This document shows positions 46,380 to 63,106 of a DNA stretch of 64,000 bases, piece by piece (positions within the stretch are counted from its first letter, which is position 1; the number at the start of each line of letters is the position of its first letter). A model generated the notes under the pieces. The model had not been told where the DNA came from and searched no databases. It saw only the letters and a program-made list of their open reading frames with translations. This DNA comes from an uncultured Acidobacteriota bacterium. Lineage in GTDB: Bacteria; Acidobacteriota; Thermoanaerobaculia; Multivoradales; JAHEKO01. The stretch covers positions 416,001 to 480,000 of the forward strand of contig CAVQNG010000005.1 in the NCBI GenBank assembly GCA_963713825.1. Reading direction: 5' to 3'. The position numbers and the translations under genes were made by a program.

Positions 46380-46400
46380 CGCGTAGCTCCTTGTGCTCCC

Positions 46401-47942
46401 TTAAGCGAGGGGTACGGCTTGACCGGCCTGGACGTAGGCGTGCTCGAAGGCGAGCAGGCCGATGAGGGCGAACGGTACGGCGATCGGAGCACCGATCAAG
46501 GGTGCTGCGACGGCCACCGCCGCCAAAGCCAGTCCGGTCCAGAAGTAGAGTTTGAAGCGGCCGCCGGTCATCTCGTGGGTTGCCGCTTTGGCGTGGGCTG
46601 TAGCGTGCGTCAGCGTGATCTCACCCAGGATCATCAGGACGTGGATGAAGCTGGCGGTCGCCAGGCCCCAGAGCAGGGGAGTTACGGCTCGCGGCTCCCA
46701 AAGCAGTGCGAAGGGCAGCAACACGGCCGACCCCGCCAAGAGGGTCTGCACCAGGAGGTGCGGCGGCAACAGGGGACTCTGCCATAGGTCGCGCGCCTTG
46801 GCCTGGGCAAACAGATAGGCGGTATAGACGGCGGTCATGGTGGCCAGCGGGATGCCCGGCCAGAGCAGCATCTGGTGCCAGTCGCCCTTGGCGAGCAGGC
46901 TGGCCAGGAAATGCAGCCCCAGAATGGCCGAGTAGCCTCCGATGATGTAGGACCCCCGCACCAGCCAGCTGCGCCAGTGTGATTTCGTGAAGATCATGTA
47001 GAAGCGGGTGGGATGGTCGAGGTCCCAGATCAGCAGAACGCCGGTCAGACCCAGGAAGGCTCCCGCCACGACGGGGGCGGTCCACTGCCAGAGGCTGCTG
47101 CTCGCATCGATCATTCCGAACAGCACCAGCAGCGCCGCCACCAGGTAGGCACCGGCGGCGATCCCCTTGGTCAGCGTGTAGAGGCTCACCCGCCAGTCCC
47201 AGGGTGCCTTGTGAGGCACGTCGTAGGCCAGCACGGCAGCAGCGGAGGAGTTGCTGGCGTCCGGGCTTCCCGATACGACACTCTGTCCGCCCTGCTTCTG
47301 CTGGCTCCAGATGAAGATGCCGCCGGGCGGTCTCTGGGCAGCCAGGGGATCGAGAGTGGCCTGATGGGCGCCCCGGTAGTAGAGCTTCGGATGCGTCTCC
47401 TTCTCGGGCCGCCGCACGGCTACAGGCTGTCGATTGACCATCTGGGCGACCCGGGTGTTGGGGTCGTTCATGTCGCCTATCATGATGGCCTCGGTGGGGC
47501 AGACGACCACGCAGGCCGGTTCCAGCCCGACATCGAGGCGGTGAGCGCAGAAGTTGCACTTCTCCGCTGAATGATCTTCTGGGTTGATGAAGATGGCGTC
47601 GTAAGGGCACGAGGCGATGCAGGCCTTGCATCCGATGCAAATTGACTTGTCGAAGTCGACGATGCCGTCCGCTCGCTGGTGCATGGCCTGGGTGGGGCAG
47701 GCGGCGACGCAGGGCGGGTCTTCACACTGATTGCAGCGGGTCACCTGATAGGCGCGGCGGGCCGCCGGGAACTTGCCGACATCGACATACTTGACGTAGG
47801 TTCGCGTCACCGACAGCGGGACGTCGTTCTCTGATTTGCAGGCCGTGGTGCAAGCATGGCAACCGATGCAACTGGCATGATCGACTACCTTGCCCCACTT
47901 GAGCGGGTCGGTGCGGGTTTGAGCTGGTAGCGGCTCGGCCAT
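46401..47942 (-). CDS. Fused 4x[4Fe-4S] (NrfC/PsrB) + NrfD/PsrC membrane anchor
   Basis: CIGCHAC, CNQCEDPPC, CIGCKAC, CNFC..PACVVVCP, then ~8 TMs with DLDHPTRF, SWLVRG. Confidence 0.9.
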   Translation of the reverse strand: MAEPLPAQTRTDPLKWGKVVDHASCIGCHACTTACKSENDVPLSVTRTYVKYVDVGKFPAARRAYQVTRCNQCEDPPCVAACPTQAMHQRADGIVDFDKSICIGCKACIASCPYDAIFINPEDHSAEKCNFCAHRLDVGLEPACVVVCPTEAIMIGDMNDPNTRVAQMVNRQPVAVRRPEKETHPKLYYRGAHQATLDPLAAQRPPGGIFIWSQQKQGGQSVVSGSPDASNSSAAAVLAYDVPHKAPWDWRVSLYTLTKGIAAGAYLVAALLVLFGMIDASSSLWQWTAPVVAGAFLGLTGVLLIWDLDHPTRFYMIFTKSHWRSWLVRGSYIIGGYSAILGLHFLASLLAKGDWHQMLLWPGIPLATMTAVYTAYLFAQAKARDLWQSPLLPPHLLVQTLLAGSAVLLPFALLWEPRAVTPLLWGLATASFIHVLMILGEITLTHATAHAKAATHEMTGGRFKLYFWTGLALAAVAVAAPLIGAPIAVPFALIGLLAFEHAYVQAGQAVPLA

Positions 47943-48068
47943 CGATACTCCCTCCCGTATGTCGGGCCCCATGTTAAGAGATGGGAGGACCGACCGCAAT
48001 CCTCATTTCGAGCCCTTTGACAGGACCCGCTCGTTGCAGCAAACTGGTCGCTCGGAGGGGCGAAGAGA

Positions 48069-49522: not shown

Positions 49523-50791
49523 CTAGAAGCCCCAGGAGTAGCTGATCTCGATGTCCCACTGACTCATGGCCAGGGTGATGTCCTGCAGGCCAGGAACCTC
49601 GAGCATATTGGGTCCGGTGACCTCGACCTCGGGGGCGTACATCAGCGAGAAATTGAGACCGCTGCTGTCGCCGAAAGCCCTGGTGAAGCCGAAGGTGAAG
49701 TGGTCTTCCATGACGCCGGGGGCGAGGATGTTGAACAGCACCTCGCTCTCCGGGATCGGCTGGTCGGTGAACGAATAGCCGAAGCGCCACGCCCAGGCGT
49801 TCTCGGGGTCGTATTGCAGACCGAACTTCCAGACGGACATATCCTGCCAGCCGAAGCCGGCGCCGCCGTCGTCTCCCAGCCGTGCCGTCTGCAGGTTGGG
49901 CAGCAGTGGGTTGCTGATCGACTTGATGTTGCTGTAGTAGATGTCCTGATAGTCGACGAGCAGGCTCATGGCCGGCGTTGCGTGGATGGCGATGCCAGCG
50001 GTCAGGCTAGCCGGGATGTTGAACCCGCCCCGCTCGGCGAACAGGCCCGCATAGTCGGTGAACTCGTCCATGCTCATCTCGGTCTCGTAGGAGATACCGA
50101 ACGAGAACCGGTCGGTGAACCGCCCCAGGTAGCCTACCTTGGCGCCGTAGCCGGTGGAGGTGGACTTGCCGTTGTCTGAGAGCTTGGTGGGATCGGAGGA
50201 GAAAGGCGCGAAACTGCCGACGCCCTGGGCCTCGAAGGTCTGGTAGACAAAGATCGGCATGATGCCGATGGAGTGTTTGTCCGCGAACTCGACAGCCCAG
50301 GGAATGCCTACGAAGAGCTGCTCGAGATTCACGCCAGTGGGCTGGCCGGCATAGAAGGTCGCAGCAGGGTAGTCGGTGTTCATTCCACCATGACCATAGA
50401 GGTTGACGCCCAGGGTCATGTTGTCACCGATTCGCCAGCTGCCGCCGAAGTAGGGGATGTAGAAGTAGTTGGAATCGCTCTCCACCTTTCCGGGTGTCAA
50501 GCCAAAGGTGCCGGGGAAACCAGAGGGGTTGCCCGTTACCGTGTAAGACCGGTCGGGGCTGAAGACCCCGATTCCGGCATCGTAGCGCTTGCCCACGACC
50601 ACCATTCCAGCCGGGTTGGTCGCCGCTGCCATGGTGTCCTGAGGCATGGCCACGCCGGCGCCCGCAAGCGCTTTGGCGATGGTGCCGTAACCATGAGCGA
50701 AGTAGCCGTTGGTGGCCTGAGCGGGCGAGACCATCGCCAGAGCCAGGAGAACGGCCAATGATCCGAAGAGGATCCTGTGAAACTTGGTCAT
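49523..50791 (-). CDS. FadL/TodX/OmpP1 family outer-membrane channel (copy 1)
   Basis: ATNGYFAHGYG..LAGAGVA..NPAG hatch motif; GFGWQD; C-terminal YSWGF. Confidence 0.88.
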   Translation of the reverse strand: MTKFHRILFGSLAVLLALAMVSPAQATNGYFAHGYGTIAKALAGAGVAMPQDTMAAATNPAGMVVVGKRYDAGIGVFSPDRSYTVTGNPSGFPGTFGLTPGKVESDSNYFYIPYFGGSWRIGDNMTLGVNLYGHGGMNTDYPAATFYAGQPTGVNLEQLFVGIPWAVEFADKHSIGIMPIFVYQTFEAQGVGSFAPFSSDPTKLSDNGKSTSTGYGAKVGYLGRFTDRFSFGISYETEMSMDEFTDYAGLFAERGGFNIPASLTAGIAIHATPAMSLLVDYQDIYYSNIKSISNPLLPNLQTARLGDDGGAGFGWQDMSVWKFGLQYDPENAWAWRFGYSFTDQPIPESEVLFNILAPGVMEDHFTFGFTRAFGDSSGLNFSLMYAPEVEVTGPNMLEVPGLQDITLAMSQWDIEISYSWGF

Positions 50792-51163: not shown

Positions 51164-51463
51164 TCAACCGTAACGATTCAGGAGGCTCAGGACCTCCGAG
51201 ACTTCCTCTCGAACTTCGGGTGTGTCGCAGGCGTGGCCGGCCAGCCGGCGGGAGACAGCACAGGAGATCTGGTCGCTGAAGGCCTTGTTGAGCGCCCCGC
51301 GGGCCGCAGCCAGCTGCTGGGCGATCTTCTCGCAGTCTTCGTCGTCAGAGATCATCTTCTGGATGCCGCGAAGCTGACCCTCGACCCGTGCCAGTCGGGC
51401 CAGTAGGCGCTTCTTGTCCTCGATCGGCACGACCGCTTTCTTGATCGGTGCTACAGAAGCCAT
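51164..51463 (-). CDS. CsoR/RcnR-family repressor, CstR-like (persulfide-sensing)
   Basis: RLARVEGQLRGIQKM..DCEKIAQQLAA; second Cys (DQISC) lacks the CsoR His; sulfur-gene context. Confidence 0.85.
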   Translation of the reverse strand: MASVAPIKKAVVPIEDKKRLLARLARVEGQLRGIQKMISDDEDCEKIAQQLAAARGALNKAFSDQISCAVSRRLAGHACDTPEVREEVSEVLSLLNRYG

Positions 51464-51495
51464 GGTGTTCCTTCCTGGCGCGCAAAAAGAGAGAA

Positions 51496-52074
51496 TCAAA
51501 TAAAGAGATTCGTTCGGGACCTGAGGGACTCACCCAGGAACGCGGCCACGCCAGCGGGCTCGAGACCGTCCATGAGCTCCTCGTCCGCGATCCCCATCAC
51601 ATCCTTGGACATCTCGCAGGCCAGCATCTTCACACCCATCTCTCTGGCCATTTCGATCATTTCCTCGAGCGAGGAAACGTTGTTGTCCTTCATCATCTGG
51701 CGCAGCATCTTGGCGCCGACACCGAAGTAGTTCATCTTGGAGACGGGCAGTTGCGTGGAATTGCTCGGGCTCATGACCGACATCATCTTCTCGAACAGGC
51801 CCTTGCCAGCCAGGTTGCTGTCCTTCTTGAGAACACTCAAGCCCCAGAAGGTGAAGAACATGCTGACTTCCTGGCCCAGGGCGGCGGCGCCCGTGGCGAT
51901 GACGAAAGCAGCCAGGACGCGGTCCAGGTCGCCGGAGAAGACGATCAGGGCGACCATGTCCTCAGGCTGTGATTCCTCGAGGCTCTGTACACGCTGCTCG
52001 ACGGCGGATAGCCGCTCCAGCAGCTCGTTCACGTCGACTTTGCCGCTTGGGGTCGTGACATCACTTACCGACAT
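51496..52074 (-). CDS. DsrE2 (DsrE/DsrF/DrsH-like, YrkE-type) sulfur carrier
   Basis: FSGDLD, MFFTFWGL, ACEMSKDVMG. Confidence 0.9.
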   Translation of the reverse strand: MSVSDVTTPSGKVDVNELLERLSAVEQRVQSLEESQPEDMVALIVFSGDLDRVLAAFVIATGAAALGQEVSMFFTFWGLSVLKKDSNLAGKGLFEKMMSVMSPSNSTQLPVSKMNYFGVGAKMLRQMMKDNNVSSLEEMIEMAREMGVKMLACEMSKDVMGIADEELMDGLEPAGVAAFLGESLRSRTNLFI

Positions 52075-52086
52075 CGTGGTGCTCCT

Positions 52087-52341
52087 TTAGCTGGTCTTCT
52101 GGATGAAGTGGAGGAAAAGCTCGGTACCGTCTTCTTCGACGGTCTCCTGGCCCAGAAGCTCGACGTTCTTGCCGATCTTGGCCCAGCCCTGAAAGTCCTT
52201 GATGGAGCCGCGGTCTGTGCTGATGATCCTGAGGACCTGTCCCTCAGTCAGCTCGCCGATTTTCTTGCGGGCCTTGACCACGGGCATGGGGCAGTTGAGG
52301 CCTTTGGTGTCGAGAGTCTCGTCGTAGTGGACTTCATTCAT
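52087..52341 (-). CDS. tusA: TusA family sulfurtransferase
   Basis: LDTKGLNCPMPVV, STDRGS. Confidence 0.92.
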   Translation of the reverse strand: MNEVHYDETLDTKGLNCPMPVVKARKKIGELTEGQVLRIISTDRGSIKDFQGWAKIGKNVELLGQETVEEDGTELFLHFIQKTS

Positions 52342-52432
52342 GATTCGCGTCCTCTTCTGCCGCTGATGCGGCTGCCGAATCCAAGGTAGATGTGCTTCCC
52401 TGTAATCACAAGTAAGGTCCGTTGAATCTAGG

Positions 52433-52448
52433 ATACCCCTGGTGGTAT
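52433..52448. promoter_or_regulatory. CsoR/CstR-type operator in the divergent promoter
   Basis: ATACC-CCTGGT-GGTAT palindrome with C/G tracts, typical of CsoR-family operators. Confidence 0.75.
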
Positions 52449-52550
52449 TGTCAAGCGGCCTTTGATTCAGTAGAAGGAGGGGGACCTTGTCGCCGAGGCG
52501 AGCCGATCTCGGGCTCGTCGGGAAATGAAGCCATCGAGGAGGAAGAAACC

Positions 52551-53783
52551 ATGACGTCAGCCGATTCCTCAGCCATGGAGTGGCAGCCAGGGCAGCTGCT
52601 GGAGCACCTGGAGCGGGAAGACGACCTGTTCATCTTCGACGTTCGGAACGAAGACGAATACGAGAGTTGGAAGATCGAGGGGAAGAAGAAGATCCCCATG
52701 GTCAACGTGCCTTACTACGAGATGCTCGAAGTCGATGAGCACGACGACGTGGTCGACACCTTCGTCGACTATCTCGAAGGTGCATGGATGGACAAGCTGC
52801 CCAAGGAGACGCCGATTCTGGCCGTCTGCGCCAAGGGTGACACCTCGGAGTACGTTGCCGAGGCCATGCGACGACTGGGTTTCGATGCTTTCAACATGGC
52901 GGGTGGCACCAAGGCCTGGGGCGACTACTACCACGTGCGCGCCATCGAGGAGACGGAGCATCGCAGTGTGTACCAGATCAGTCGTCCGGCGCGGGGTTGC
53001 CTGAGCTATCTCATCGGCAGTGCTGGTAAGGCCGCGCTCATCGACCCGCTGCGGCACGAACAGCACTATCTCGACCTGGCAGCCGAGAAAGGTCTCGAGA
53101 TCGTTCTGGTTCTGGATACCCACGGGCATGCGGATCACATCAGTGGCGGTCCGGCGATCGCCGAGCATTCTGGAGCGCCTTACTACCTGCACCCCTACGA
53201 TGGGATTCACCCCATCGACGTCCTGCCGGCCAAGATCCCGTACCTGTTCGTCCGTGACGAGCAGGAATTCAAGGTGGGGGAGTGCACGATCCACACGTTT
53301 CACATTCCAGGTCATACGCTGGGTAACCTGGCGTACCTGTTGGACGGCAAGTATCTGTTCACCGGTGACAGCATCTTCATCAAGTCCATCGCACGACCCG
53401 ATCTAGGCGGCCACGGCGACACCTGGGCGCCGATCCACTATCAGTCGCTGCGTAGGTTGCTGGAGCTGTCGGAGGATGTGATCGTCTTGCCGGCCCACTT
53501 CGCCACGCTCGCCGAGGAGAATGGACAGGGACTGTTTGCGGATTCTCTCGGCGAGCTGAAGAAGGTCAATGACGGCCTGCTGATGGTCCAGAAGGGCGAG
53601 GAGGCGTTCGTCAGCTACATCCTCGCGAGTCTGCCCAAGTTCCCGGAGGAATACATCGAGATCAAGCGCGTTAACGCGGGCCTGGTCGAAGTGGGTGAGG
53701 CAAAGGCCTCGGAGCTCGAGCTGGGCAAGAACATCTGCGCGCTCTCAGAAGCCTACGAAGACGACGAAGCGGCGGCCGGCTGA
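52551..53783 (+). CDS. Rhodanese + MBL-fold persulfide dioxygenase-like fusion (YrkH-type order)
   Basis: DVR..VCAKGDTS rhodanese; GCLSY, THGHADH, PGHT, TGD, ARPDL, PAH; C-terminal GKNICA. Confidence 0.9.
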   Translation: MTSADSSAMEWQPGQLLEHLEREDDLFIFDVRNEDEYESWKIEGKKKIPMVNVPYYEMLEVDEHDDVVDTFVDYLEGAWMDKLPKETPILAVCAKGDTSEYVAEAMRRLGFDAFNMAGGTKAWGDYYHVRAIEETEHRSVYQISRPARGCLSYLIGSAGKAALIDPLRHEQHYLDLAAEKGLEIVLVLDTHGHADHISGGPAIAEHSGAPYYLHPYDGIHPIDVLPAKIPYLFVRDEQEFKVGECTIHTFHIPGHTLGNLAYLLDGKYLFTGDSIFIKSIARPDLGGHGDTWAPIHYQSLRRLLELSEDVIVLPAHFATLAEENGQGLFADSLGELKKVNDGLLMVQKGEEAFVSYILASLPKFPEEYIEIKRVNAGLVEVGEAKASELELGKNICALSEAYEDDEAAAG

Positions 53784-53891
53784 GCCCGGGCCACGAGCTC
53801 TTTTCGAGTTGGCTCCCCGTCTTGAATCCAAGACGGCCCGAGGTCGTGAGACCTCGAGCCGCTCGGGTTGTCCGATCACCACTTCTGGCAA

Positions 53892-54284
53892 TCAGTCTGC
53901 GTCGTCGGGCTGCTCCGGATCCACCCCCGGCGGTTCCGGATGAGGCGCCATGAGGTACTCTCGCAGACCTTCCATGTCGGTGGCGAGTGACTGATACTGC
54001 TTGCCCTGCTTGGTCAGCTTGGCAGAGCCAGGCTTGCGTACATGGCAGGCTGTGCACTTACCGAAGTCCTGCGTTACGTGGTCATACCCGTCGAATGAGC
54101 CCATGAGCTCGTAGTATTTGCCCTCGTCGGTCATCAATTTGCTGCCGGGCTTGTCATGGCAGACCGTGCAGGCGGCGTCTTCCTTGTTGGCGATCGCCTT
54201 GGTGGCAAAAGCCGAGCCGGCGGGAATCAGCTGTGCAGCCAACGCTATGGCAGTGATACCAGCGATGATCCATAGTTTCTTCAT
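53892..54284 (-). CDS. Small periplasmic diheme c-type cytochrome (internal duplication)
   Basis: Signal peptide; CTVCHDKPGSKLMTDEGKYY and CTACHVRKPGSAKLTKQGKQY. Confidence 0.85.
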   Translation of the reverse strand: MKKLWIIAGITAIALAAQLIPAGSAFATKAIANKEDAACTVCHDKPGSKLMTDEGKYYELMGSFDGYDHVTQDFGKCTACHVRKPGSAKLTKQGKQYQSLATDMEGLREYLMAPHPEPPGVDPEQPDDAD

Positions 54285-54327
54285 GATCTTGGTCTCCTGA
54301 GGAGCCTAGGTGGCGCCTCGCTTGTCC

Positions 54328-55647
54328 TCATTTCCTCGCCCAGGCCCACGAAATACCGAAAGCGGCCGTCCACTGACTGTGCTCGACTGTCGTTCCCGGA
54401 CCGAAGGGATTCACCTGGGGATTGGGGTTGTTGTTGGTCTGTGATGTGTTGAAGGCGTGCTCGATCCCGAACTCATAGGAGATGCTGCCCGCCAGGTAGC
54501 TGAAGCCGAAGGAGAGGTGGTCTTCGACGGTGGCGGGAAACAGCGGGTTGAGGGTGTCATCGGGAACCGGATTCTCACCGTAGTTGTAGCCGGCCCTCAG
54601 GGTCAGCGTGTCGTTCACCCGGTAGTCGGCGCCGAAAGCGTAGACCCATTGATCCTTCCAGTTGAAGACGAAGGGCAGGACCACCTCATCGAATGGCGGC
54701 GGTAGGGGTGCGTCTGGGTTCTTGCCCGTTACCGTGATGGTGTCAATGGCGTCATCCCAGTAGTTCTTCTTGATATCGAGCGCCAGTATCCATCGGTCGT
54801 TGGGTCGCAGGGCGAAGCCGACGCCGGCTTGAGCCGCGAACGTGAATCCGTCCACCTCAGCTTCGTACCCGACCTTCTGTCCGATGAACGGGAATCCGTT
54901 GTAGTTGACCGCCAGGTCACCTCCGGTGAAATCGCTCTTGGTCTCGGTCTGGTAAATGGCGCCGACCGAGAACTTTGGCGTCGCTCGCCACATCCATCCC
55001 AGTCGGAAGTTGTATTGCAGACCGCCAGCCGTACCCATTTCCACTCCGGGAAAGCTGAAGGCGGGGTTGTCGGTGTTGAAGAACGAGGTTTCGGGCCAGA
55101 ACGCGAACGCGACATCCGCATAACCGACATTGGCTGCAAGTCCAATCGACATGTCTTCGTTGATGGCGTACGAGACGGTTGGAACGAGTGTTCCGAAGCG
55201 GACCTCGCTGTCCGTCTTGTCCTGGGTGCCGAAGAAGGTGTTCGTGTTCTTGAACGTGGCACCCATTCCTCCCTGGGCGACCATTCCGATCCCCCAGGAC
55301 CATGGCGAATCTTTGCCGGCACGCACATAGGCGAAGGAGGGCAGCGGGAAGTAGCTGCTCTCGGAGTCGATAGGCGACGGATTGACCATGTTCTCGAAGG
55401 TCAGCGATGGAACCAATACTGCGAGGTTGGCCGTAAAGTGGTTTCCCTGGAGTTGAGAGATGCCGGCCGGGTTGAAGTTGATCGCCAGGCTCCGGTCCGA
55501 GATGGCGAGATTGGCGCCACCTCGACCCAGGGTCTCTGCTCCATAGGCGGTGAGGTACATGCCGTTGGTGGCGGGCAGTTGAGCCGGGGCCACCAGAACC
55601 ATGACCATAAATGCCAGTGGCCAGGCGCGAATTATTCGGGTGTACAT
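54328..55647 (-). CDS. FadL/TodX/OmpP1 family outer-membrane channel (copy 2)
   Basis: ATNGMYLTAYG..GRGG..NPAG; WKDQW, LRAGYNYGENP. Confidence 0.88.
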   Translation of the reverse strand: MYTRIIRAWPLAFMVMVLVAPAQLPATNGMYLTAYGAETLGRGGANLAISDRSLAINFNPAGISQLQGNHFTANLAVLVPSLTFENMVNPSPIDSESSYFPLPSFAYVRAGKDSPWSWGIGMVAQGGMGATFKNTNTFFGTQDKTDSEVRFGTLVPTVSYAINEDMSIGLAANVGYADVAFAFWPETSFFNTDNPAFSFPGVEMGTAGGLQYNFRLGWMWRATPKFSVGAIYQTETKSDFTGGDLAVNYNGFPFIGQKVGYEAEVDGFTFAAQAGVGFALRPNDRWILALDIKKNYWDDAIDTITVTGKNPDAPLPPPFDEVVLPFVFNWKDQWVYAFGADYRVNDTLTLRAGYNYGENPVPDDTLNPLFPATVEDHLSFGFSYLAGSISYEFGIEHAFNTSQTNNNPNPQVNPFGPGTTVEHSQWTAAFGISWAWARK

Positions 55648-55709
55648 GATTGTCTCCTGAAAAATCCGGTGCTCGATGAGTTGGGAAGGTCCCAATCAGG
55701 GCATCGGGA

Positions 55710-56246
55710 TCAGATAAAGATGATCTGTGCTCCAGCGCTCTTCTCGTAGAAGTCCATTACAGTCAGGACCTCATCGACCTGAGGCAACAGGTCCGTTTCT
55801 TCGAGCTTGAACATGTCCATGGCCATGCGGCAGGCATAGAGCTCTGCGCCGGCGTCGGAGAGCATCTCGATGAACTCCCGTACTGGTGGGATGTCGAGAT
55901 CCTCCATCTGCTTCTTCATCATCTTGCTGGCCACGGCTTCCATGCCCGGCAGTCCACCGACCATCGTCGGCATCATGGGCAGGGCGGGATTGCCGACGGT
56001 CGCCACGTGAAGGTTGTCGACCTTCTTCTCGGTAATCATGTCGAGGCCCCAGAAGGTGAAGAACACCATGGCCTCGATGCCCATCATCCGGGCGCCGTTG
56101 GCCATCACCAGCCCGGGATAGGCCATGTCCAGAGAGCCTTTCGAGCAGATGATGCTGACCCTCTCTATCGGTTCTCGTTGGGGCTCCTCGTCCGCTACCG
56201 TGGGCTGTCCACTGATGACGGGTTCGTTGATTGTTGTCGTTGTCAT
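55710..56246 (-). CDS. DsrE2-family protein
   Basis: ICSKGSLDMAYP, FFTFWGL, YACRMAMD. Confidence 0.9.
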   Translation of the reverse strand: MTTTTINEPVISGQPTVADEEPQREPIERVSIICSKGSLDMAYPGLVMANGARMMGIEAMVFFTFWGLDMITEKKVDNLHVATVGNPALPMMPTMVGGLPGMEAVASKMMKKQMEDLDIPPVREFIEMLSDAGAELYACRMAMDMFKLEETDLLPQVDEVLTVMDFYEKSAGAQIIFI

Positions 56247-56323
56247 GATCGTCTCTCAGTTCCTTGATAGATCGAGCTCGATTGCCAGATCGATGCTCGG
56301 TTTTGTTTGGTTTTTCGATGGCC

Positions 56324-56641
56324 TCAGATGCAGCCTTGGGGCTTCGGCAGACCGGACACCATGGCGGCAAGCTTGCCGGGGCCCTTTGGAAACAACTGGT
56401 AGAGGTCCTTCATGTTGACACCCGAGTTTTTGGAGATCCGACGCAGCCCCGGGGGCGTTCCCTGCTTGGCCGCATCCTCCCGGCAGAAGGTGATGACCTT
56501 CCAATGCTGGTCGTTGAGCTCGTCGATGCCGATTTCTTTGGCGATGGCCTCGGCTACCTCGGGTGTCCACTGACTGCTATCCATCAGAAAGCCCTCGTCG
56601 TTGACCTCGATGGACTGTCCGGCGTACTCGACTACTGGCAT
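56324..56641 (-). CDS. tusE: TusE/DsrC-family sulfur relay protein (single C-terminal Cys)
   Basis: DEGFL..W..HWKVI..LYQLFPKGP..GLPKPQGCI. Confidence 0.88.
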   Translation of the reverse strand: MPVVEYAGQSIEVNDEGFLMDSSQWTPEVAEAIAKEIGIDELNDQHWKVITFCREDAAKQGTPPGLRRISKNSGVNMKDLYQLFPKGPGKLAAMVSGLPKPQGCI

Positions 56642-56712
56642 GTTGGTGCCTCCTTTCAACAACTTGTTTGGCAGTAATTTCGATCAATGCGAATTCGAAG
56701 AATCTGGGTCTC

Positions 56713-57975
56713 TCAAGAGGTCAACTCTGCATCCGCTGCGAGCTTGCCCGGGCGCTTCTTCCCAACCATCGACATCTGGTTCGGAACCGGAATCGGATGG
56801 CCGGGCAGCAGCGCGTGCCAGTAAACGTGCCGGAACATGAGCTTGCCCCAGTGGTTGAACCGGCTTTCCTTGAGGAGCGGGAAGGGGCCCACGGTCGGGA
56901 GAGGGTAGACGCCCGGCAGCGGCTCCTGCTCGTAGTTGAAATCGATCAGCATGGCCCTGCCGTAGCCGCTCTCGATGAAGCAGTTGGCGTGGCCGTCGAA
57001 GACCGCCTTGGGAGTCTCGCCCTTGATGAGGTGCAGAACGTTGTCCACGACCACTTCGGCCTGGAAGTGCGCCACCGAGCCGGCCTTCGAGGTCGGCAGG
57101 TCCGTAGCGTCGCCAAGCACGAAAATGTTGTCGTAGTTGTTGGCGATCAGGCTGTGTCGGTCGGTCGGAATGAAGGCCAGGTCGTCGCCCAAGCCTGAAT
57201 CTTGGATGAACTGGGCACCCATGTGCGTCGGGATGGTGATCAACATGTCGAAGGGGACTTCGCGCTCGTCGTAGGAGCGCAGCACCTTGCGATCGACATC
57301 CACTTCGCTGGCGTTGTACTCGGCCTCGACCTTGATGCCGCGGTCGTCGAGGATGCCGCCCAGGGCTTTCGCGGCGATGGGCTTGGTGAAGGCGCCGTCG
57401 AGGGGTGTGACGTAGGTCAGCTCGACGTTGTCCCGGATGCCCTTCTCGGTGAAGAAAGACTCTGCGAGGAACGTGATCTCCAAGGGTGCGACGGGGCACT
57501 TGATGGGCATCTCGACGGTGTTCACGACCACCCTGCCGCCTTCGAACGTCTTCAGGGCATCGCGCATGGCAACCGAGCCCTCGAGTGTGTAGAAGTCGAA
57601 AATGCTCTTCTGCCACTCGTCGCCGAGAAGCCCAGGAGTCTCTTCCGGGCGAATATGGGAGCCGGTGGCGATCACGAGAAGGTCGTATGGGACCTTGTCG
57701 TCGCCGTCGAGAATGACTTGATTGTTGTCGGCATCGACCTGCTGGACCTGGCGCTGGATCCACTCGATTCCCTTGCCGAGAGTGCTCTTCCGCGGCCGAA
57801 TGGTCTTTTCCGGAGTCTGCATCTCGAACGGGATGAAGATGAGATCCGGCTGAAACAGGTGGTCGGTGTCCGGGTCGATGATCTTCAACGCCCAATCCGA
57901 GGGCAACTTCTTGCGGAGCATGTTGGCGACGGTCGTGCCCGCCGTACCAGCTCCCAGGATGACGAAGTTCTTCAT
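56713..57975 (-). CDS. sqr: Sulfide:quinone oxidoreductase, type III-like
   Basis: GAGTAG, KCPVAPLE, LGDATDLPTSKAGSVAH, GHANCFIE, NHWGK. Confidence 0.85.
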   Translation of the reverse strand: MKNFVILGAGTAGTTVANMLRKKLPSDWALKIIDPDTDHLFQPDLIFIPFEMQTPEKTIRPRKSTLGKGIEWIQRQVQQVDADNNQVILDGDDKVPYDLLVIATGSHIRPEETPGLLGDEWQKSIFDFYTLEGSVAMRDALKTFEGGRVVVNTVEMPIKCPVAPLEITFLAESFFTEKGIRDNVELTYVTPLDGAFTKPIAAKALGGILDDRGIKVEAEYNASEVDVDRKVLRSYDEREVPFDMLITIPTHMGAQFIQDSGLGDDLAFIPTDRHSLIANNYDNIFVLGDATDLPTSKAGSVAHFQAEVVVDNVLHLIKGETPKAVFDGHANCFIESGYGRAMLIDFNYEQEPLPGVYPLPTVGPFPLLKESRFNHWGKLMFRHVYWHALLPGHPIPVPNQMSMVGKKRPGKLAADAELTS

Positions 57976-58017
57976 GAAAGTTCCTTTCTCTAGAATCGTT
58001 GCTCGCTCATATTGAGT

Positions 58018-58034
58018 AGCATTGAGCGTGCCAA
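58018..58034 (-). promoter_or_regulatory. Sigma-54 (-24/-12) promoter of the sqr operon
   Basis: Minus strand TTGGCACGCTCAATGCT = GG-N10-GC with TGGCAC, about 43 nt upstream of the ATG. Confidence 0.85.
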
Positions 58035-58102
58035 CATTGTAACTACTGGTTTCAAAGGGGTTAAGGTGATACCACTCGGATCAGCGGAGTGCTACGAGAC
58101 CT

Positions 58103-58132
58103 AACGTTTCACTGAAACGTTTCATTTGAAAC
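58103..58132. promoter_or_regulatory. Tandem palindromic enhancer (UAS) for a sigma-54 activator
   Basis: AACGTTTCACTGAAACGTTTCATTTGAAAC: two GTTTCA-N1/2-TGAAAC dyads about 70-100 bp upstream of -24. Confidence 0.7.
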
Positions 58133-58252
58133 TTTATGTTGCAACGCAAAGTTCCGTGATGCCCCACAGGAGCGCCGAGAAAAGGGTGGCACCTCGAGAG
58201 AGCGTCGAGGCAGTGAGGCTATGTGGCGGGAAAAAAACGGGTGGCACCCGGG

Positions 58253-59674
58253 TTACTTGAGGAGGCCGTGTTCGCGCATCTTCCGCCACAGGGTCGTACG
58301 GCTCATGCCCAGAGCCTCGGCCGCTTCGGCGCGTCGCCATTGATGGGCTTCGAGGGCAGCGCGAAGGCGCTCGTGCTCCGGGTCGCTGTCGAGCGGAACT
58401 TCGACGCGGCGCTCGGGTTCCGACTGCGGCTCGGGGCTCGGCCGGAAGGGCCGGGTGACGGTCACTGGCAGGGGTTCGGCGCCTGAGATCTCCAGTGGCA
58501 GGTCCCGTGGATGGAGGGTCTGGCTTCGGCTGACCGCTATCGCGTACTCGAGGGCGTTCTCCAACTCGCGGACATTGCCGGGCCAGGAGTAGCGCAGCAG
58601 AGCCCGCATCGCATCGGGTGAGAGCCTGACCGAGCGATCATGCCGGGCACCGACGCGGGCCAGGAGGTGACGGGCCAGGGGCTCGATGTCCTCACGCCTC
58701 TTGCGCAGAGGCGGTACTTCGATGGGTACGACACGCAAGCGGTAGTAGAGATCTTCACGAAAGGAGTCGTCGAGGATGGCCTGCCGAAGGTCCTTGTTAG
58801 TCGCCGCGATGATCCTGGCGTCCGAGCTTCGGCTCTCGCTCTCACCAACGCGCTCGAAGGTCCTCTCCTGCAGCACGCGCAAGAGCTTCACCTGCAAATG
58901 AACGGGAATGTCGCCCACCTCGTCGAGGAAAATGGTGCCGCTCGAAGCGAGCTCGAAACGACCTACCCGGTCCCGCACGGCTCCTGTAAAGGCACCTCGT
59001 ACATGGCCGAAGAGCTCACTCTCGAGCAGGTCCTGCGGGATGGCTCCCGAATTGACAGCCACGAAAGGGCCCTTGCTGCGAGGTGAGTGCACATGGATGG
59101 CCCGTGCGACGAGCTCCTTGCCGGTACCGCTCTCGCCAGTGATGAGAACCGTGGCATCGCTTCCTGCCAGGTGCTCGATCAGCCCGAAGATGCGCAGCAT
59201 CGAGGCTGACCTCGCCACCAGCCCAGAGAACACCGTCGGAGCGGCCGAGCCCGCCTGGTGATCCTCCTGGCTGGGTCGGACGACGACAACGTAGGCCACT
59301 CTGGGGTCGCATACCTCGGAGTCGGCGTGGATCACAGGCGCCGTGCTGATCGAGACGAGGTGAGGCTGAAATCCTTCAATCTGCAGGTTGCCGCCCCAGC
59401 CTTCGCGACGGTCACCGGCCGCGAGGGCCCTACGCAGCGACCCTTCGTTGCCGAACAGCTCACTCCCCAGGATGGATTCGATCGGCAGTCCGAGAATGGA
59501 TTTGGCTGCTCCCGGACCCATGATCCGATCCAGGCCTTTGGAGGCGTGAACGACATGGAACTGGCGATTGACGCAGATCAGAGCCCGGCCGAGCGACTCG
59601 AAGAGAGTGCTGACGCCGTCGAGGATGTCGTCGGCACCGAGCCCGGCAGGGGGCCACTCCTCTAGGGGAGGCAC
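58253..59674 (-). CDS. Sigma-54-dependent activator (PAS-like + AAA+ + Fis HTH)
   Basis: GESGTGKE, ESELFGH, GAFTGA, FLDEVG, WPGNVRELEN, LGMSRTTLWRK; likely GTG start at 59674. Confidence 0.93.
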   Translation of the reverse strand: MPPLEEWPPAGLGADDILDGVSTLFESLGRALICVNRQFHVVHASKGLDRIMGPGAAKSILGLPIESILGSELFGNEGSLRRALAAGDRREGWGGNLQIEGFQPHLVSISTAPVIHADSEVCDPRVAYVVVVRPSQEDHQAGSAAPTVFSGLVARSASMLRIFGLIEHLAGSDATVLITGESGTGKELVARAIHVHSPRSKGPFVAVNSGAIPQDLLESELFGHVRGAFTGAVRDRVGRFELASSGTIFLDEVGDIPVHLQVKLLRVLQERTFERVGESESRSSDARIIAATNKDLRQAILDDSFREDLYYRLRVVPIEVPPLRKRREDIEPLARHLLARVGARHDRSVRLSPDAMRALLRYSWPGNVRELENALEYAIAVSRSQTLHPRDLPLEISGAEPLPVTVTRPFRPSPEPQSEPERRVEVPLDSDPEHERLRAALEAHQWRRAEAAEALGMSRTTLWRKMREHGLLK

Positions 59675-59702
59675 GGGTTCATCCTCAGAGCAGGCACGGC
59701 TT

Positions 59703-60215
59703 TCACTCCCACCAGATATCCAGCTCTTCCGGTGGATTGAGCTTTTCGGGCTCGAAGCCCAGACGGCGCAGCTCGGTGATAACGGCTTCTTCCACCTCGG
59801 GTATCGCCGCCATGACCGGCTCGCTGAGCGTAGTCTGTAGCTCGACCTGGGAGGGGATGACTCCGACCAGAAGTACGTCGTCCGGCGCCTCGCCGATGAA
59901 ATCACCAGCCAGCAGCGCGTCTCGCAAGCTGGGATCGTGGGGTGACAGGCGCAAAGCGGGAAGGATCTTGGCGATATCCTGTTGCCGGTAGAGACGCACC
60001 TCGCCCGGCTCTCCCTTGGCTTTCACGGCATCCAGAACGATCACAGCGTCGAACTGGGCCATGTAGTTGACGAACTCCGGCCCTGGCGTGCCGAGATCGA
60101 GAAGCTCGATCTCCGACGGGAAGATGTAGTTGGCCTTAAGGAATTGGAGGACGTACGCACCGAAGGCGTCGTCCCCCATGATGATGCTGCCCAATGAGAT
60201 GATTCCAACTTTCAT
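59703..60215 (-). CDS. Hydrogenase maturation protease (HyaD/HybD family)
   Basis: GSIIMGDDAFG, DLGT, LDAV, SPHD. Confidence 0.88.
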   Translation of the reverse strand: MKVGIISLGSIIMGDDAFGAYVLQFLKANYIFPSEIELLDLGTPGPEFVNYMAQFDAVIVLDAVKAKGEPGEVRLYRQQDIAKILPALRLSPHDPSLRDALLAGDFIGEAPDDVLLVGVIPSQVELQTTLSEPVMAAIPEVEEAVITELRRLGFEPEKLNPPEELDIWWE

Positions 60216-60242
60216 GGGCTGCAAGTATATGCGCGTTCTCGG

Positions 60243-60368
60243 CTATTCCTTGCCTCCAGGCTCGCGGAGATAGCGCACGAAGTAGATCAGCAGCACGAGG
60301 AAGCACATCAGCAGCAGGTACTCGAGGCCTTTGGTCTCGAAGATGTTGACGTAGGTGTAGGTTTCCAT
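60243..60368 (-). CDS. 41-aa single-TM peptide, HmcD-like (not in the ORF track)
   Basis: METYTYVNIFETKGLEYLLLMCFLVLLIYFVRYLREPGGKE*; GGGAG SD; follows the HmcC/HybB gene. Confidence 0.75.
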   Translation of the reverse strand: METYTYVNIFETKGLEYLLLMCFLVLLIYFVRYLREPGGKE

Positions 60369-60384
60369 GGGTTCAGACTCCCTT

Positions 60385-61638
60385 CTACAGGCTGGCCGCA
60401 ATGGGTGGACGCGCGGTTTTCCTCTGCTCTTGCTCGGGCAACTCGTGAGCCTCGCGGAGTACCGGCATGCGCAGAACGATCCAGCGGAAGACCCAGATCT
60501 CGGCCGAGACCACCATCATCGTGACCACGATCTCCTGCCAGGAGGGGTAGTAGCGGACGGCCGCGTTCCAGTTGTAGGCGATCACCGAGATGTTGAGGCG
60601 ATTGACGACGATACCGAGGAGTGTGAGCACCGCGGCGGCTCGGATGATGCCGATGTGCCGGTGGCGCGCTCCGTAGGCGAACATGATGCAGGGAATCAGG
60701 ACGAGACCGATGATCTCGAGCAGATACCAGGCTCCCCAGCCGCCCCGGACCATCGTCCACTGCTTGTCGTGGAGAAAGATCAGCGCCCGGAAGAAGTAGT
60801 ACACGAACATGGAGATGGCGGCGCCCTTCGCCAGACCGATCACGATGTCGTCAAAGGAACCGTGCTTCTTCGGGTCGATCTGGTCCTTGAAGACCCGATG
60901 GCTGATGGTGCCTTCGAAGATGATCATGGAGAGTCCTGCGAAGATGCTCGAGACGAGGAAGAAGATGGGAATGAACTCGGAGTACCAGAGTGGGTGGATC
61001 TTGGGCTTGGCCATCAGGTAGAGGGCGCCGAGACCCGACTGGTGCAAGCTGGACAGGGTGACACCAAAGATCACCGCGGCCAGCGTCAGGGAGGAGAGGA
61101 TTCTTCGGGCTCGGCGGGCTCCCAGCCACTCGGCTACAACGGGAGAGAATTCGAGCAATTCCGTGAGCATGTAGAGCAGGAAATGCCAGGAAACCAGAAA
61201 GAGGACCGAGTTGAATCCGAAGCTATTGCCGATGATGGGGTTGATGATGTTCCAGGGCCGGCCCAGGTCGAGGGCCAGAGCGCCGGCGTAGAAGACATAC
61301 GCCAAAAGGCCGTTCAGGACCGTGGCACGGACGATGGGGTGGTATTTCTCCATACGCATGATGTAGACGGCGAACGTGATCGTGTAGGCGCCCCCGGCGA
61401 AGGCGACGCCAGTGACGACGTCGAATCCGATCCAGAAACCCCAGGGATACTCCTGTGAGAGATTGGTGACCGCACCCAGGCCCTTGGTGAAACGGACGAC
61501 CAGGATCCCCAGCCCGAGGAGCATGATGGGCACCGAGATCACGTTGAAGGGCGTGAAGATTTTGCCCCGTGGGCGCAGCTGGGAACGGACGAAGTTCCAG
61601 AATCCACCCTGGTCACGGACGACAGTCATCGAAGTCAT
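60385..61638 (-). CDS. HybB/HmcC (NrfD-family) membrane subunit
   Basis: YPWGFWIGFDV, DLGRPW, LSSLHQSGLG, NRLN, YYPSWQE. Confidence 0.9.
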   Translation of the reverse strand: MTSMTVVRDQGGFWNFVRSQLRPRGKIFTPFNVISVPIMLLGLGILVVRFTKGLGAVTNLSQEYPWGFWIGFDVVTGVAFAGGAYTITFAVYIMRMEKYHPIVRATVLNGLLAYVFYAGALALDLGRPWNIINPIIGNSFGFNSVLFLVSWHFLLYMLTELLEFSPVVAEWLGARRARRILSSLTLAAVIFGVTLSSLHQSGLGALYLMAKPKIHPLWYSEFIPIFFLVSSIFAGLSMIIFEGTISHRVFKDQIDPKKHGSFDDIVIGLAKGAAISMFVYYFFRALIFLHDKQWTMVRGGWGAWYLLEIIGLVLIPCIMFAYGARHRHIGIIRAAAVLTLLGIVVNRLNISVIAYNWNAAVRYYPSWQEIVVTMMVVSAEIWVFRWIVLRMPVLREAHELPEQEQRKTARPPIAASL

Positions 61639-61672
61639 GGTCGTGCTCCGTAATTCTGGTCTGTCATGACCG

Positions 61673-62518
61673 TCAGTCCTCCTCGTCCGAACCGGACATC
61701 TGATTGAGTCCATAGAGCAGGGCAGGTACCCCGAACAGCACTAGAGGAACGCCGTAGAGGAAGTCGCGTGTGTACTCTGGATAGGGAGTCGTTCCCAGGT
61801 CGGTCCGGAAGCCCAACTCCTCGAAGGGCACGGCCGACAGATAGAGCCAGCCGGTGCCACCCACTTCGTGCTCGCCGTAGATCTTGTGCACGTAGCGGTC
61901 GGGGTGGTTGTAGATCCGCACCCGGGCAATCTCCATGAGATCCCTCTTCTTGCCGAACATGAGGGCATCGGTGGGGCAGGAATCGACGCAGGCTGGTTTC
62001 TTGCCCTCTTGAAGGCGATCGAAGCAGAGGTTGCATTTCTGGATTTTGGGGTTCCATTCGTTGTACTCGAACTTGGGGATGTCGAAGGGGCAAGAGACCA
62101 TGCAGAATCGACACCCCATGCATTTCGACGAGCGCCAGATGACCGGACCCTCCTGGGTCTTGTACATGGCGTTGGTGAGGCAGGCAGCGGTACATGCGGG
62201 CTGCCAGCAGTGCATGCACTGGGTTTTGACGAAGACCTCGCCTCGGGTCGTGTCGTAGCGATTGACGACGGTCCAGGCAGACTCGCTGGTCTTACGCGGC
62301 GTCTCGAGAGCCTCGTCGTTGACAGTGTCTGGGACGGGGAAGCCGTGCTCGGTCGCACAGGCCTTCTCGCAGGCCCTGCACCCGATGCAACGGGTGGTGT
62401 CGACCAGCACGCCGGAGAACTCCGGCGAGGGTGCCGCGCTCTCGGACCCCCGTGCGTCGGTGCCGGTCAAGGCCATTCCGGCGACTCCTGTGACCTTCAG
62501 GAAATCCCTCCGATTCAT
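61673..62518 (-). CDS. HybA/HmcB Tat-exported 4x[4Fe-4S] protein
   Basis: MNRRDFLK Tat signal; CIGCRAC, CMHCWQPAC, CMGCRFC, CNLC..PACVDSCP; YGEHEVGGT; C-terminal TM. Confidence 0.92.
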   Translation of the reverse strand: MNRRDFLKVTGVAGMALTGTDARGSESAAPSPEFSGVLVDTTRCIGCRACEKACATEHGFPVPDTVNDEALETPRKTSESAWTVVNRYDTTRGEVFVKTQCMHCWQPACTAACLTNAMYKTQEGPVIWRSSKCMGCRFCMVSCPFDIPKFEYNEWNPKIQKCNLCFDRLQEGKKPACVDSCPTDALMFGKKRDLMEIARVRIYNHPDRYVHKIYGEHEVGGTGWLYLSAVPFEELGFRTDLGTTPYPEYTRDFLYGVPLVLFGVPALLYGLNQMSGSDEED

Positions 62519-63045
62519 CCTGCGACCTCCTTCTCAGGCGACAGCCGGTTGTGCCTTGCGCTTTCCTGCGAAGACGGGTTCGCTGCTCCCTGATGGCAGG
62601 TGCCGCAATTGCGGCTCGCATCGGGACCTTTGGCGACCTCGTGGCACTTCCAGCAGCTTTGATGAATGACGACCTTGGCGCTCATGGTCTCGTCGGCGAC
62701 GGTGTGTGGCGCGCTGTGGTGGCAGGTGGAACAGGCCTGTGGACAGGCCGGGGTCTCACTCTCGTGATGACAGGTCGTGCAGTCGATCCAGAAGTCCTGT
62801 AGGTAGTCCTCATGGGGCATCTGCAGCCTGACGGCATTGGTTTCGTGATGGCAGTCCGCACAGGGGATCTCGAAGTCCTCGCTGTGCATCTGGTGTGCGA
62901 AGGTCACCTCGCCGACCGAGGAAGGCGACACGATGACGTCTGGGGGCGCGGGTGAGAGGCAGCGATCCTCGGCTGGTTGGCCTGCGGCGGTGGTCGCGAC
63001 CAGGCCGAGAGCCAGCACGAAGAGAAAAAGGGTGGCACCTTTCAT
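62515..63045 (-). CDS. Class III (c3-like) multiheme cytochrome, five CxxCH
   Basis: Signal peptide; VTFAHQMH; CADCH, CTTCH, CSTCH, CWKCH, CGTCH. Confidence 0.88.
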   Translation of the reverse strand: MKGATLFLFVLALGLVATTAAGQPAEDRCLSPAPPDVIVSPSSVGEVTFAHQMHSEDFEIPCADCHHETNAVRLQMPHEDYLQDFWIDCTTCHHESETPACPQACSTCHHSAPHTVADETMSAKVVIHQSCWKCHEVAKGPDASRNCGTCHQGAANPSSQESARHNRLSPEKEVAG

Positions 63046-63106
63046 GCTTCGGTCCTCCAGGGTTCAGACTCACTCGAGTCAGAGTAGAAACTTCAGTCCA
63101 ATCGGC

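Follow-up and report, generated by a model that had tools for sequence, protein, structure and literature searches.

A sigma-54-dependent sulfur operon of an uncultured Acidobacteriota bacterium that pairs a FadL-family channel with a diheme cytochrome predicted to dock on it

By analyzing a 64,000-nucleotide (nt) stretch of DNA from an uncultured Acidobacteriota bacterium (hereafter the window; positions 416,001 to 480,000 of contig CAVQNG010000005.1), we identified a five-gene, sigma-54-dependent operon on the minus strand that is built of two modules. The first comprises a type III sulfide:quinone oxidoreductase (SQR), a TusE-type sulfur carrier of the DsrC family and a DsrE2-like protein, and the second a FadL/TodX-family outer-membrane channel (FadL1) and a secreted diheme c-type cytochrome (Cyt2h). 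In the reading that we favor, to which we assign a probability of roughly 0.5, both modules serve sulfur metabolism, the first at the cytoplasmic face and the second in the envelope. The evidence comes from the gene identities and their order, from the company that FadL1 and Cyt2h keep in related genomes, from a structure prediction of the two proteins together, and from the conservation of the promoter and of the sites upstream of it.

All five co-oriented genes named in a preliminary description of this DNA were recovered by profile matches. The SQR gene (57975..56713) encodes 420 amino acids (aa) and matches the NCBIfam model NF049943 with 601.9 bits against a cut-off of 525; it is the sole copy at this level in the genome, where a second match is weak (195.8 bits). 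Although that model is named 'selenoprotein subtype', no in-frame stop was found in the open reading frame (ORF) or in the match, and the protein is therefore read as the Cys form; no signal peptide was found on it. The TusE-type gene (56662..56324, with a likely ATG start at 56641) matches PF04358 (E = 7.9e-32) and TIGR03342 (88.7 bits against 53.5), and its product ends in ...GLPKPQGCI, with the penultimate cysteine as the only one. In DsrC proper, a second cysteine lies about 10-11 residues ahead of the penultimate one; alanine occupies that position here. Because the penultimate cysteine stands alone, the protein is classed as TusE-type and not as a DsrAB partner, and an identity as DsrAB-linked DsrC was dropped on account of the alanine and of the lack of any dsrA match in the 96%-complete genome. 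The DsrE2 call needs a finer wording: the third gene (56246..55710) belongs to the Pfam DrsE_2 family (PF13686, E = 1.8e-37, 129.2 bits against 25), but stays below the cut-off of the NCBIfam equivalog NF047629 (106.5 against 210 bits), and is therefore called DsrE2-like. No signal peptide was detected on its product, which would accordingly be cytoplasmic. FadL1 (55647..54328) matches PF03349 with 129 bits against a gathering cut-off of 29.7 and carries a signal peptide, and Cyt2h (54284..53892; 130 aa) combines a signal peptide with two CXXCH motifs.

The intergenic gaps within the operon measure 43-77 nt, and a scan found no terminator-like sites inside it on the operon strand. A G+C-rich hairpin (53828..53868, minus strand) lies between the cytochrome stop and the convergent rhodanese-metallo-beta-lactamase (MBL) gene; folded as RNA, 53780-53895 reaches z = −5.56 relative to shuffled sequences, and the hairpin is likely the end of the operon. 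Co-transcription, as implied in the preliminary description, is supported by RNA-library contigs that bridge all four gene junctions, that is, SQR-TusE (X16, 56260-56999), TusE-DsrE2 (X15, 56163-56651), DsrE2-FadL1 (X16, 54377-56070; X15, 55450-56073) and FadL1-Cyt2h (X15, X16 and X17). Three studies of sediment and other metagenomes supplied the four RNA libraries concerned, and the contigs lie on 53812-57967, one of them extending to 53812, past the cytochrome stop. RNA contig cover was absent in all four runs on 53300-53661, within the convergent rhodanese-MBL gene, and on 58006-58548, which takes in the intergenic region and the 3′ end of the activator gene; these gaps carry no evidential weight. 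In addition, 14 DNA runs, from sediment or salt-marsh metagenomes where labelled, hold 68-85% of the sampled words.

To place the operon among its relatives, loci were collected by scanning one genome for each prokaryote species with a motif, which gave 52 FadL1 loci (at least 46% identity) and 27 distant FadL loci; their genes were called with a third-position-GC filter, and three low-G+C loci were redone. The FadL1 loci come from Thermoanaerobaculia, 'Multivoradales' and Candidatus Eisenbacteria, and the closest relatives are metagenome-assembled genomes labelled Thermoanaerobaculia (Acidobacteriota), with a top FadL1 identity of 95%. Relatives whose FadL1 is 63-95% identical keep the order SQR-TusE-DsrE2-FadL1-Cyt2h, and these range across genera, families and the order. 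Of the 49 loci that extend 450 nt or more downstream, 48 have Cyt2h directly 3′ of FadL1; in the exception, L073, an AhpD/CMD-family gene takes its place. The co-occurrence of FadL with sulfur genes, raised earlier as a point to be checked, was found to be strong: SQR3, DsrC-like, DsrE2 or Psr genes stand upstream in 40 of the 42 loci with at least 2.5 kb of upstream DNA. Among these 40, the full SQR trio is present in 17, and the DsrC-like gene is the only one of SQR3, DsrC-like and DsrE2 in 14. None of the 27 distant FadL loci contains any of the sulfur query genes (0/27), and no sulfur context was found for the three other FadL paralogues of the genome or for the nearest outgroups (G011 and G020).

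Three recurrent architectures were distinguished. In architecture A (17 loci), the order is activator, SQR, TusE, DsrE2, FadL1 and Cyt2h; in architecture B, an activator precedes a Cys-less DsrC-like gene, FadL1 and Cyt2h; and in architecture C, PsrA, PsrB and NrfD genes are followed by half-size YedE-like (Sulf_transp) ORFs, a rhodanese, FadL1 and Cyt2h. One further locus holds an octaheme Cytochrome_cB, cytochrome b561, a Sulf_transp (YedE-like) gene and a DsrC-like gene, another holds a DUF302 gene and a distant SQR, and the flanking genes of L039 and L041 are unrelated. Architectures A to C are interleaved within the FadL1 clade of a quick maximum-likelihood (ML) tree. Judged by these gene orders, FadL1 and Cyt2h form a module of two genes that can be separated from any one sulfur gene set and travels among several. 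As a separate observation on architecture B (L041, L043-L046, L048-L050, L052, L057 and L067), its DsrC-like proteins are without the C-terminal cysteine, one of them ending in ...KIAGLPRPPE; because of the missing cysteine, they cannot be persulfide carriers of the TusE/DsrC type and may be regulators.

The first module has a distribution of its own. Type III SQR was found in 19 of 401 sampled Acidobacteriota genomes, and SQR3, DsrC-like and DsrE2 genes stand together in 17 of the 18 genomes that have DNA downstream of SQR3; the eighteenth (L133) carries SQR3, TusE, TusA, a second DsrE2 type and CsoR. The gene that follows the trio is FadL1 in four genomes and a different FadL-family gene without a cytochrome in two (G133 and G315). 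Because three different lineages of FadL-type genes have been recruited to the same trio, a functional link between FadL and the trio can be argued. The two other genes belong to two other Acidobacteriota families: that of G133 (L153:1073-2473) scores 107.6 bits with PF03349 and is 33% identical to FadL2, a second FadL of the window, whereas that of G315 (L154:4298-5755) scores 69.3 bits and is 25% identical to FadL1 (both identities from partial tblastn alignments).

Sequence, fold and motif all assign FadL1 to the FadL/TodX family. In the FadL family, the NPA motif belongs to the N-terminal hatch domain; in FadL1, the residues N59, P60, A61 and G62 are invariant in all nine alignment rows. 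A single-chain AlphaFold2 model (pTM 0.71, with pLDDT below 50 for residues 1-57, so that hatch residues are of low confidence) resembles TodX, TbuX, CymD and FadL with Foldseek TM-scores of 0.73-0.77 at E values of about 1e-26 and identities of about 15-21%. In profile searches against solved structures, CymD (7.5e-29), TbuX (1e-26) and TodX (4e-25) rank far ahead of E. coli FadL (about 2e-9), and FadL1 is thus much closer by profile to the small-ring hydrocarbon channels than to E. coli FadL. The nearest solved relatives are aromatic-hydrocarbon channels, yet identity to them is about 20%. Instead of clustering with fatty-acid or aromatic transporters, FadL1 forms its own clade of 48 rows with an SH-aLRT support of 96 in a quick IQ-TREE ML tree, in which the outgroups raised long-branch warnings. 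The subfamily counts 390 clusters at E ≤ 1e-40; most are unnamed, and names, where given, refer to fatty-acid or generic outer-membrane transport proteins.

Cyt2h has no curated family in Pfam or NCBIfam. Its family comprises 82 clusters at 90% identity, none with a specific or curated name and a minority with generic cytochrome labels; at E ≤ 1e-30, 22 representatives were found among 1.84 billion, and strong matches in the sample of 401 Acidobacteriota genomes were confined to the four FadL1-bearing ones. In an alignment with rows from loci through L062 (A2), the invariant residues include CxxCHDKPGSK, the second CTxCH, G86, S87, M104 and H115. The invariance of M104 and H115, the candidate distal ligands, suggests two six-coordinate hemes. 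A search of the Cyt2h profile against Protein Data Bank (PDB) sequences gave nothing credible (best E = 0.05), the look-alikes in a protein atlas are generic small cytochromes, and the model of Cyt2h by itself was poor (pLDDT 65.6, pTM 0.31). The pattern CxxCH..KPGS..LT..GK occurs twice, and Cyt2h therefore looks like a tandem duplication of a monoheme unit. Many single-heme proteins of about 70 aa match the first half of Cyt2h only (E 1e-10 to 1e-3), and no FadL1 was found within 1.5 kb of the monoheme relatives L117-L119. In one relative (L047:8275-9093, G025; 273 aa), Cyt2h is fused to a C-terminal monoheme cytochrome c-like domain with a third CXXCH. A pairing of the SQR with Cyt2h in the manner of flavocytochrome c sulfide dehydrogenase (FCSD), in which a secreted flavoprotein subunit is encoded beside its cytochrome subunit, was considered and dropped: the SQR is without a signal peptide, three genes lie between the two, and Cyt2h accompanies FadL1.

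We know of no solved FadL-cytochrome complex, and no obligatory cytochrome partner of any FadL is known to us. When mature FadL1, two hemes and mature Cyt2h were submitted to complex prediction, the median score was 0.80, compared with 0.45 for the best control. This mark is reached by 116 of 157 solved complexes and by 2 of 215 mismatched pairs, counts that calibrate the present score only roughly, since own alignments were used and heme ligands were included. The runs share at least 87% of their contacts, with a partner pLDDT of at least 80. On the side of FadL1, the predicted contacts fall on residues 112, 164, 223-224, 284, 343-347 and 385-390, which are short turns on one face according to the single-chain strand map, as well as on the end of the C-terminal strand (433-437) and on the hatch residues 51-52 and 65-70; on the side of Cyt2h, they fall on the invariant DKPGSK loop that follows heme 1. 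The model thus supports a placement of Cyt2h on the periplasmic mouth of FadL1, which would be topologically right for a secreted cytochrome.

A sigma-54 promoter lies about 45 nt ahead of the sqr ATG, as had been proposed from its −24/−12 elements: TGGCACgctcaATGCT at 58033..58018 on the minus strand, with GG at 58032-58031 and GC at 58020-58019, differs from TGGCAC-N5-TTGCW at one position. Only three sites in the 64 kb have at most one mismatch, this one included. Matches to the consensus with at most two mismatches number 27 in the window against 24.2 expected, that is, they occur at chance level, and the lone site is for that reason not significant by itself. It is the positional conservation that gives the promoter call its weight: a sigma-54-like element recurs at this position in 19 of the 20 orthologous intergenic regions. 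The genome contains rpoN. Another one-mismatch match, TGGCACCTTTCATGCT, was noticed at 63033-63048 on the plus strand, where the cytochrome c3-like gene region begins.

The tandem GTTTCA..TGAAAC dyads described upstream of the promoter were likewise found, as GTTTCAaaTGAAAC at 58119-58132 and GTTTCAgTGAAAC at 58106-58118. GTTTCAaaTGAAAC is the only exact match in the window, and five matches with at most two mismatches stand against 1.18 expected. A third palindrome, GTTGCAAC at 58138-58145, had escaped the preliminary description; with it, the putative upstream activator site spans 58106..58145 (minus strand) and contains six GTTKCA/TGMAAC half-sites. Such half-sites are strongly enriched in the 20 orthologous intergenic regions (97 against 4.3 expected from mononucleotide shuffles) and cluster about 70-110 nt upstream. 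Genome-wide (5.4 Mb), clusters of four or more half-sites occur only twice, and only the one of the operon is backed by a sigma-54 element. As no other place in the genome combines the upstream site with the promoter, the operon is the only predicted member of the regulon.

The gene immediately upstream encodes a sigma-54-dependent activator (listed ORF 59905..58253, minus strand; Pfam Sigma54_activat at 2e-69, AAA_lid_14 and HTH_8), which consists of an N-terminal sensor domain, an AAA+ domain with a GAFTGA loop and a Fis-type helix-turn-helix (HTH). Its earlier designation as a PAS-AAA+ activator stands for the AAA+ part, but the match to PAS_4 is weak (E = 0.0049, 17.5 bits, below the cut-off of 23.1). 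The listed ORF overlaps the HycI gene (59703-60224), and the true start is probably further in for this reason. A consensus scan found a terminator-like hairpin followed by TTTTTTT 3′ of the activator gene (58238..58250, minus strand). Two cysteines of the sensor domain, C111 and C199, which lie 88 residues apart, are invariant in 21 of 21 aligned activators, and by analogy with what is described for FisR (PMC7315123), they would fit a thiol-based mechanism for the sensing of sulfane sulfur. Homologous activators and the same upstream motif also precede the SQR-less DsrC-like-FadL1-Cyt2h units.

Taken together, these data can be combined into the following mechanism. The activator would use the two invariant cysteines in its PAS-like domain to sense sulfane sulfur derived from sulfide, in the fashion of FisR, and would bind the GTTKCA dyads at 58106-58145 and open the −24/−12 promoter. 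At the cytoplasmic face, the type III SQR would turn sulfide into sulfane sulfur and reduce quinone, and the DsrE2-like and TusE-type proteins would accept the sulfane sulfur as protein persulfides. In the envelope, FadL1 would channel a small hydrophobic molecule, with Cyt2h docked on its periplasmic mouth against the hatch, where the cytochrome could give electrons to, or take them from, sulfur species at the channel exit, for example in a reductive opening of the S8 ring that yields soluble polysulfide. We infer the substrate, the direction of transport and the redox chemistry alike. The most likely cargo is hydrophobic zero-valent sulfur (S8, neutral or organic polysulfanes), because this is the only species common to SQR as product, to Psr reductases as substrate and to split YedE as reported cargo. 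The more specific proposal that FadL1 and Cyt2h form a dedicated two-protein machine for elemental sulfur at the outer membrane, in which the barrel lets in hydrophobic S8 or polysulfane and hatch-clamped Cyt2h opens the ring by reduction, or closes it by oxidation, at the channel exit, is tentative and in our estimate rather doubtful; if true, zero-valent sulfur would have its first identified passage through the outer membrane, and FadL channels their first redox-coupled member.

Several observations weigh against this two-module sulfur reading. The RNA-library contigs are no proof of one transcript, and RNA libraries can hold DNA. The earlier claim that FadL is linked to sqr holds only in the broader sense of sulfur-gene company, as the constant partner of FadL1 is Cyt2h, and a genome of the same genus (G003, L033) has the sqr-tusE-dsrE2 trio without FadL1-Cyt2h, running into the rhodanese-MBL gene. 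Eight of the sampled trios are without a FadL after them, and the envelope module is, in view of these and of G003, dispensable for the trio. Neither a Sulf_transp/YedE gene nor dsrA was found in the 96%-complete genome. In Cyt2h, hemes that appear from the conserved ligands to be six-coordinate would suit electron transfer and give no hint of sulfur chemistry, and since FadL1 has no cysteine in its sequence and mature Cyt2h no free one, the thiol-activation model proposed for acidophiles is inapplicable. As for the predicted complex, even with FadL1 replaced, the control reached 0.45, which makes Cyt2h somewhat sticky in this kind of prediction, and the enrichment of the interface for invariant residues is weak on both sides (FadL1, 13/24 against 163/413, p = 0.097; Cyt2h, 8/18 against 26/103, p = 0.043). 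Moreover, classic FadL cargo exits sideways into the membrane, through a strand kink, and not via the hatch, and a periplasmic cap would not be predicted from it.

The flow of sulfur might also run the other way. FadL1-Cyt2h would then release zero-valent sulfur, made by SQR or in the periplasm, as S8 or polysulfane and avert a build-up of sulfane sulfur under high sulfide, with Cyt2h oxidising polysulfide or sulfide at the channel entrance; we think of this exit route as unlikely, while it agrees with the predicted induction of the operon by a sulfide signal along with SQR, a producer of sulfane sulfur, with the failure to find a YedE importer or Dsr system in the genome, and with the predicted seat of Cyt2h at the periplasmic mouth. 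Against it, in many relatives FadL1-Cyt2h stands beside genes whose products use up zero-valent sulfur (Psr-type reductases) or bring it in (YedE-like importers), and the known channels of the FadL family serve uptake.

A somewhat slimmer chance goes to an organic cargo, in which case FadL1 would import a small hydrophobic organosulfur compound (thiols, dimethyl polysulfides) or an aromatic one, Cyt2h would be a plain periplasmic electron carrier, and the sulfur genes would use the released sulfur or be co-regulated for other reasons. That the closest solved relatives CymD, TbuX and TodX are monoaromatic channels, and that L039 and L041 are flanked by unrelated genes, speaks for such a cargo. 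Set against this are the low identity of about 20% to the aromatic channels, the company of inorganic-sulfur genes in 40 of 42 loci, and the annotated contexts, in which no aromatic, fatty-acid or organosulfur catabolic genes were seen.

It is improbable, in our view, that the operon is simply a sulfide-detoxification unit of the FisR type in which FadL1 and Cyt2h are passengers with an unrelated envelope role. FisR-controlled sqr operons do detoxify in Cupriavidus and Acinetobacter (PMC7315123), and the SQR trio is found without FadL in many genomes. FadL1-Cyt2h, however, occurs in three sulfur contexts with interleaved architectures and stays with sulfur genes as the context changes, and homologous activators with the same motif drive units that have no SQR at all. 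More improbable still is a miniature porin-cytochrome conduit that moves electrons to or from extracellular sulfur or minerals, as MtrAB and Cyc2 do for iron: it would share with these an outer-membrane barrel and a c-type cytochrome that is its obligatory partner (48 of 49 loci) and is predicted to bind it, and the Cyt2h of L047 does bear an extra fused monoheme domain, but there are two hemes only, Cyt2h is predicted outside the barrel at its periplasmic mouth, the conserved NPAG hatch should fill and plug the lumen, no gene for an outer-face cytochrome was seen nearby, and membership in this class was on these largely prediction-based grounds not adopted.

The two-module sulfur reading can be set beside several known systems. 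FadL1 resembles FadL, TodX, TbuX and CymD in meeting the Pfam model and in its barrel fold, NPA hatch and signal peptide, and differs from them in its identity of about 15-21%, its own clade, its sulfur-gene company and the cytochrome predicted on its periplasmic mouth. A FadL-family route for hydrophobic sulfur has already been suggested in print, in a 2017 preprint on CT2230 of Chlorobaculum tepidum (bioRxiv 10.1101/172254): CT2230 is a FadL-family gene of a sulfide-repressed regulon and is suggested to transport hydrophobic sulfur chains. Both are FadL-family outer-membrane proteins tied to sulfur metabolism, CT2230 by its regulation; however, the case for CT2230 comes from transcripts of a single organism, in which sulfide represses the gene, and its partner is a hypothetical protein and not a cytochrome.

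The regulation resembles that of the FisR-controlled sqr/pdo operons of Cupriavidus and Acinetobacter baumannii, which have an activator of sensor, AAA+ and Fis HTH domains beside a sqr operon with a −24/−12 promoter (PMC7315123). The FisR operons carry PDO, SQR and TauE, whereas the present one carries SQR III, TusE, DsrE2-like, FadL1 and Cyt2h, and FisR is divergent from its operon whereas the activator here is co-oriented. With the relay clusters of the rhd-tusA-dsrE2 and cst types, the operon shares DsrE-family and TusE/TusA-type carriers, but these are wired here to a type III SQR, and no DsrAB was found in the genome. Split YedE1E2 is reported as an importer of zero-valent sulfur at the cytoplasmic membrane (PMC10812762); half-size Sulf_transp genes stand directly before FadL1-Cyt2h in many relatives, where the YedE-like proteins and FadL1-Cyt2h together would form a two-membrane route for zero-valent sulfur, but none was found in the present genome. 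A literature search that covered sources outside subscription journals turned up the CT2230 suggestion only; among the papers looked over, none describes this operon or pairs a FadL with a cytochrome. What is new here is the gene context of FadL1, its obligatory cytochrome partner and the predicted docking of the two.

The operon lies inside a sulfur island of about 25 kb, whereas the first half of the window holds housekeeping genes; the island also contains a Psr-like molybdoenzyme, a second FadL, a tusA-dsrE2-cstR-like cluster, the rhodanese-MBL gene and an Hmc-like complex. The neighboring sulfur unit (51164-53783) consists on the minus strand of tusA (52341..52087), dsrE2 (52074..51496) and a CsoR-family repressor (51499..51164), from which the rhodanese-MBL gene (persulfide-dioxygenase-like) diverges on the plus strand. 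A palindrome in the divergent region, ATACCCCTGGTGGTAT at 52433-52448, is similar to CsoR/CstR operators. With two cysteines and without a histidine at the place of the copper ligand, the repressor is suggestive of a CstR-like persulfide sensor.

FadL2 (49523-50791, minus strand; PF03349 at 2.5e-22), which shares 27-29% identity with FadL1, is a solitary gene flanked by the Psr-like genes on one side and the cstR-like cluster on the other. It has terminator-like sites on both sides and no cytochrome partner, and was seen at the same place only in G003. Further along, at 43470-47999 on the minus strand, a Psr/Phs-like molybdopterin oxidoreductase of 969 aa lies beside a fused Fe-S and NrfD membrane subunit of 532 aa, with a NarJ-type chaperone gene close by (42573-43424); relatives encode the Psr-like B and C subunits as separate genes. 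On the other side of the operon, at 59703-63045 on the minus strand, the gene for a HycI-type hydrogenase maturation protease is preceded upstream by those for an HmcC-like NrfD protein (415 bits, under the equivalog cut-off of 550), an Fe-S protein and a cytochrome c3-like protein, a set that could be a quinone-linked periplasmic electron module next to the operon.

The passage of insoluble elemental sulfur through the outer membrane of Gram-negative bacteria has long been an unsolved problem. A Sulfurovum study of 2023 states that the membrane proteins of S0 transport are experimentally unconfirmed in acidophilic and neutrophilic sulfur oxidisers, and suggests OprD-like porins for Sulfurovum (PMC10045233). 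The present work also defines a conserved SQR III-TusE-DsrE2 trio in Acidobacteriota, as well as a sigma-54 regulator with two invariant cysteines together with its predicted DNA site. For the passage of elemental sulfur itself, FadL1-Cyt2h offers a concrete, testable candidate.

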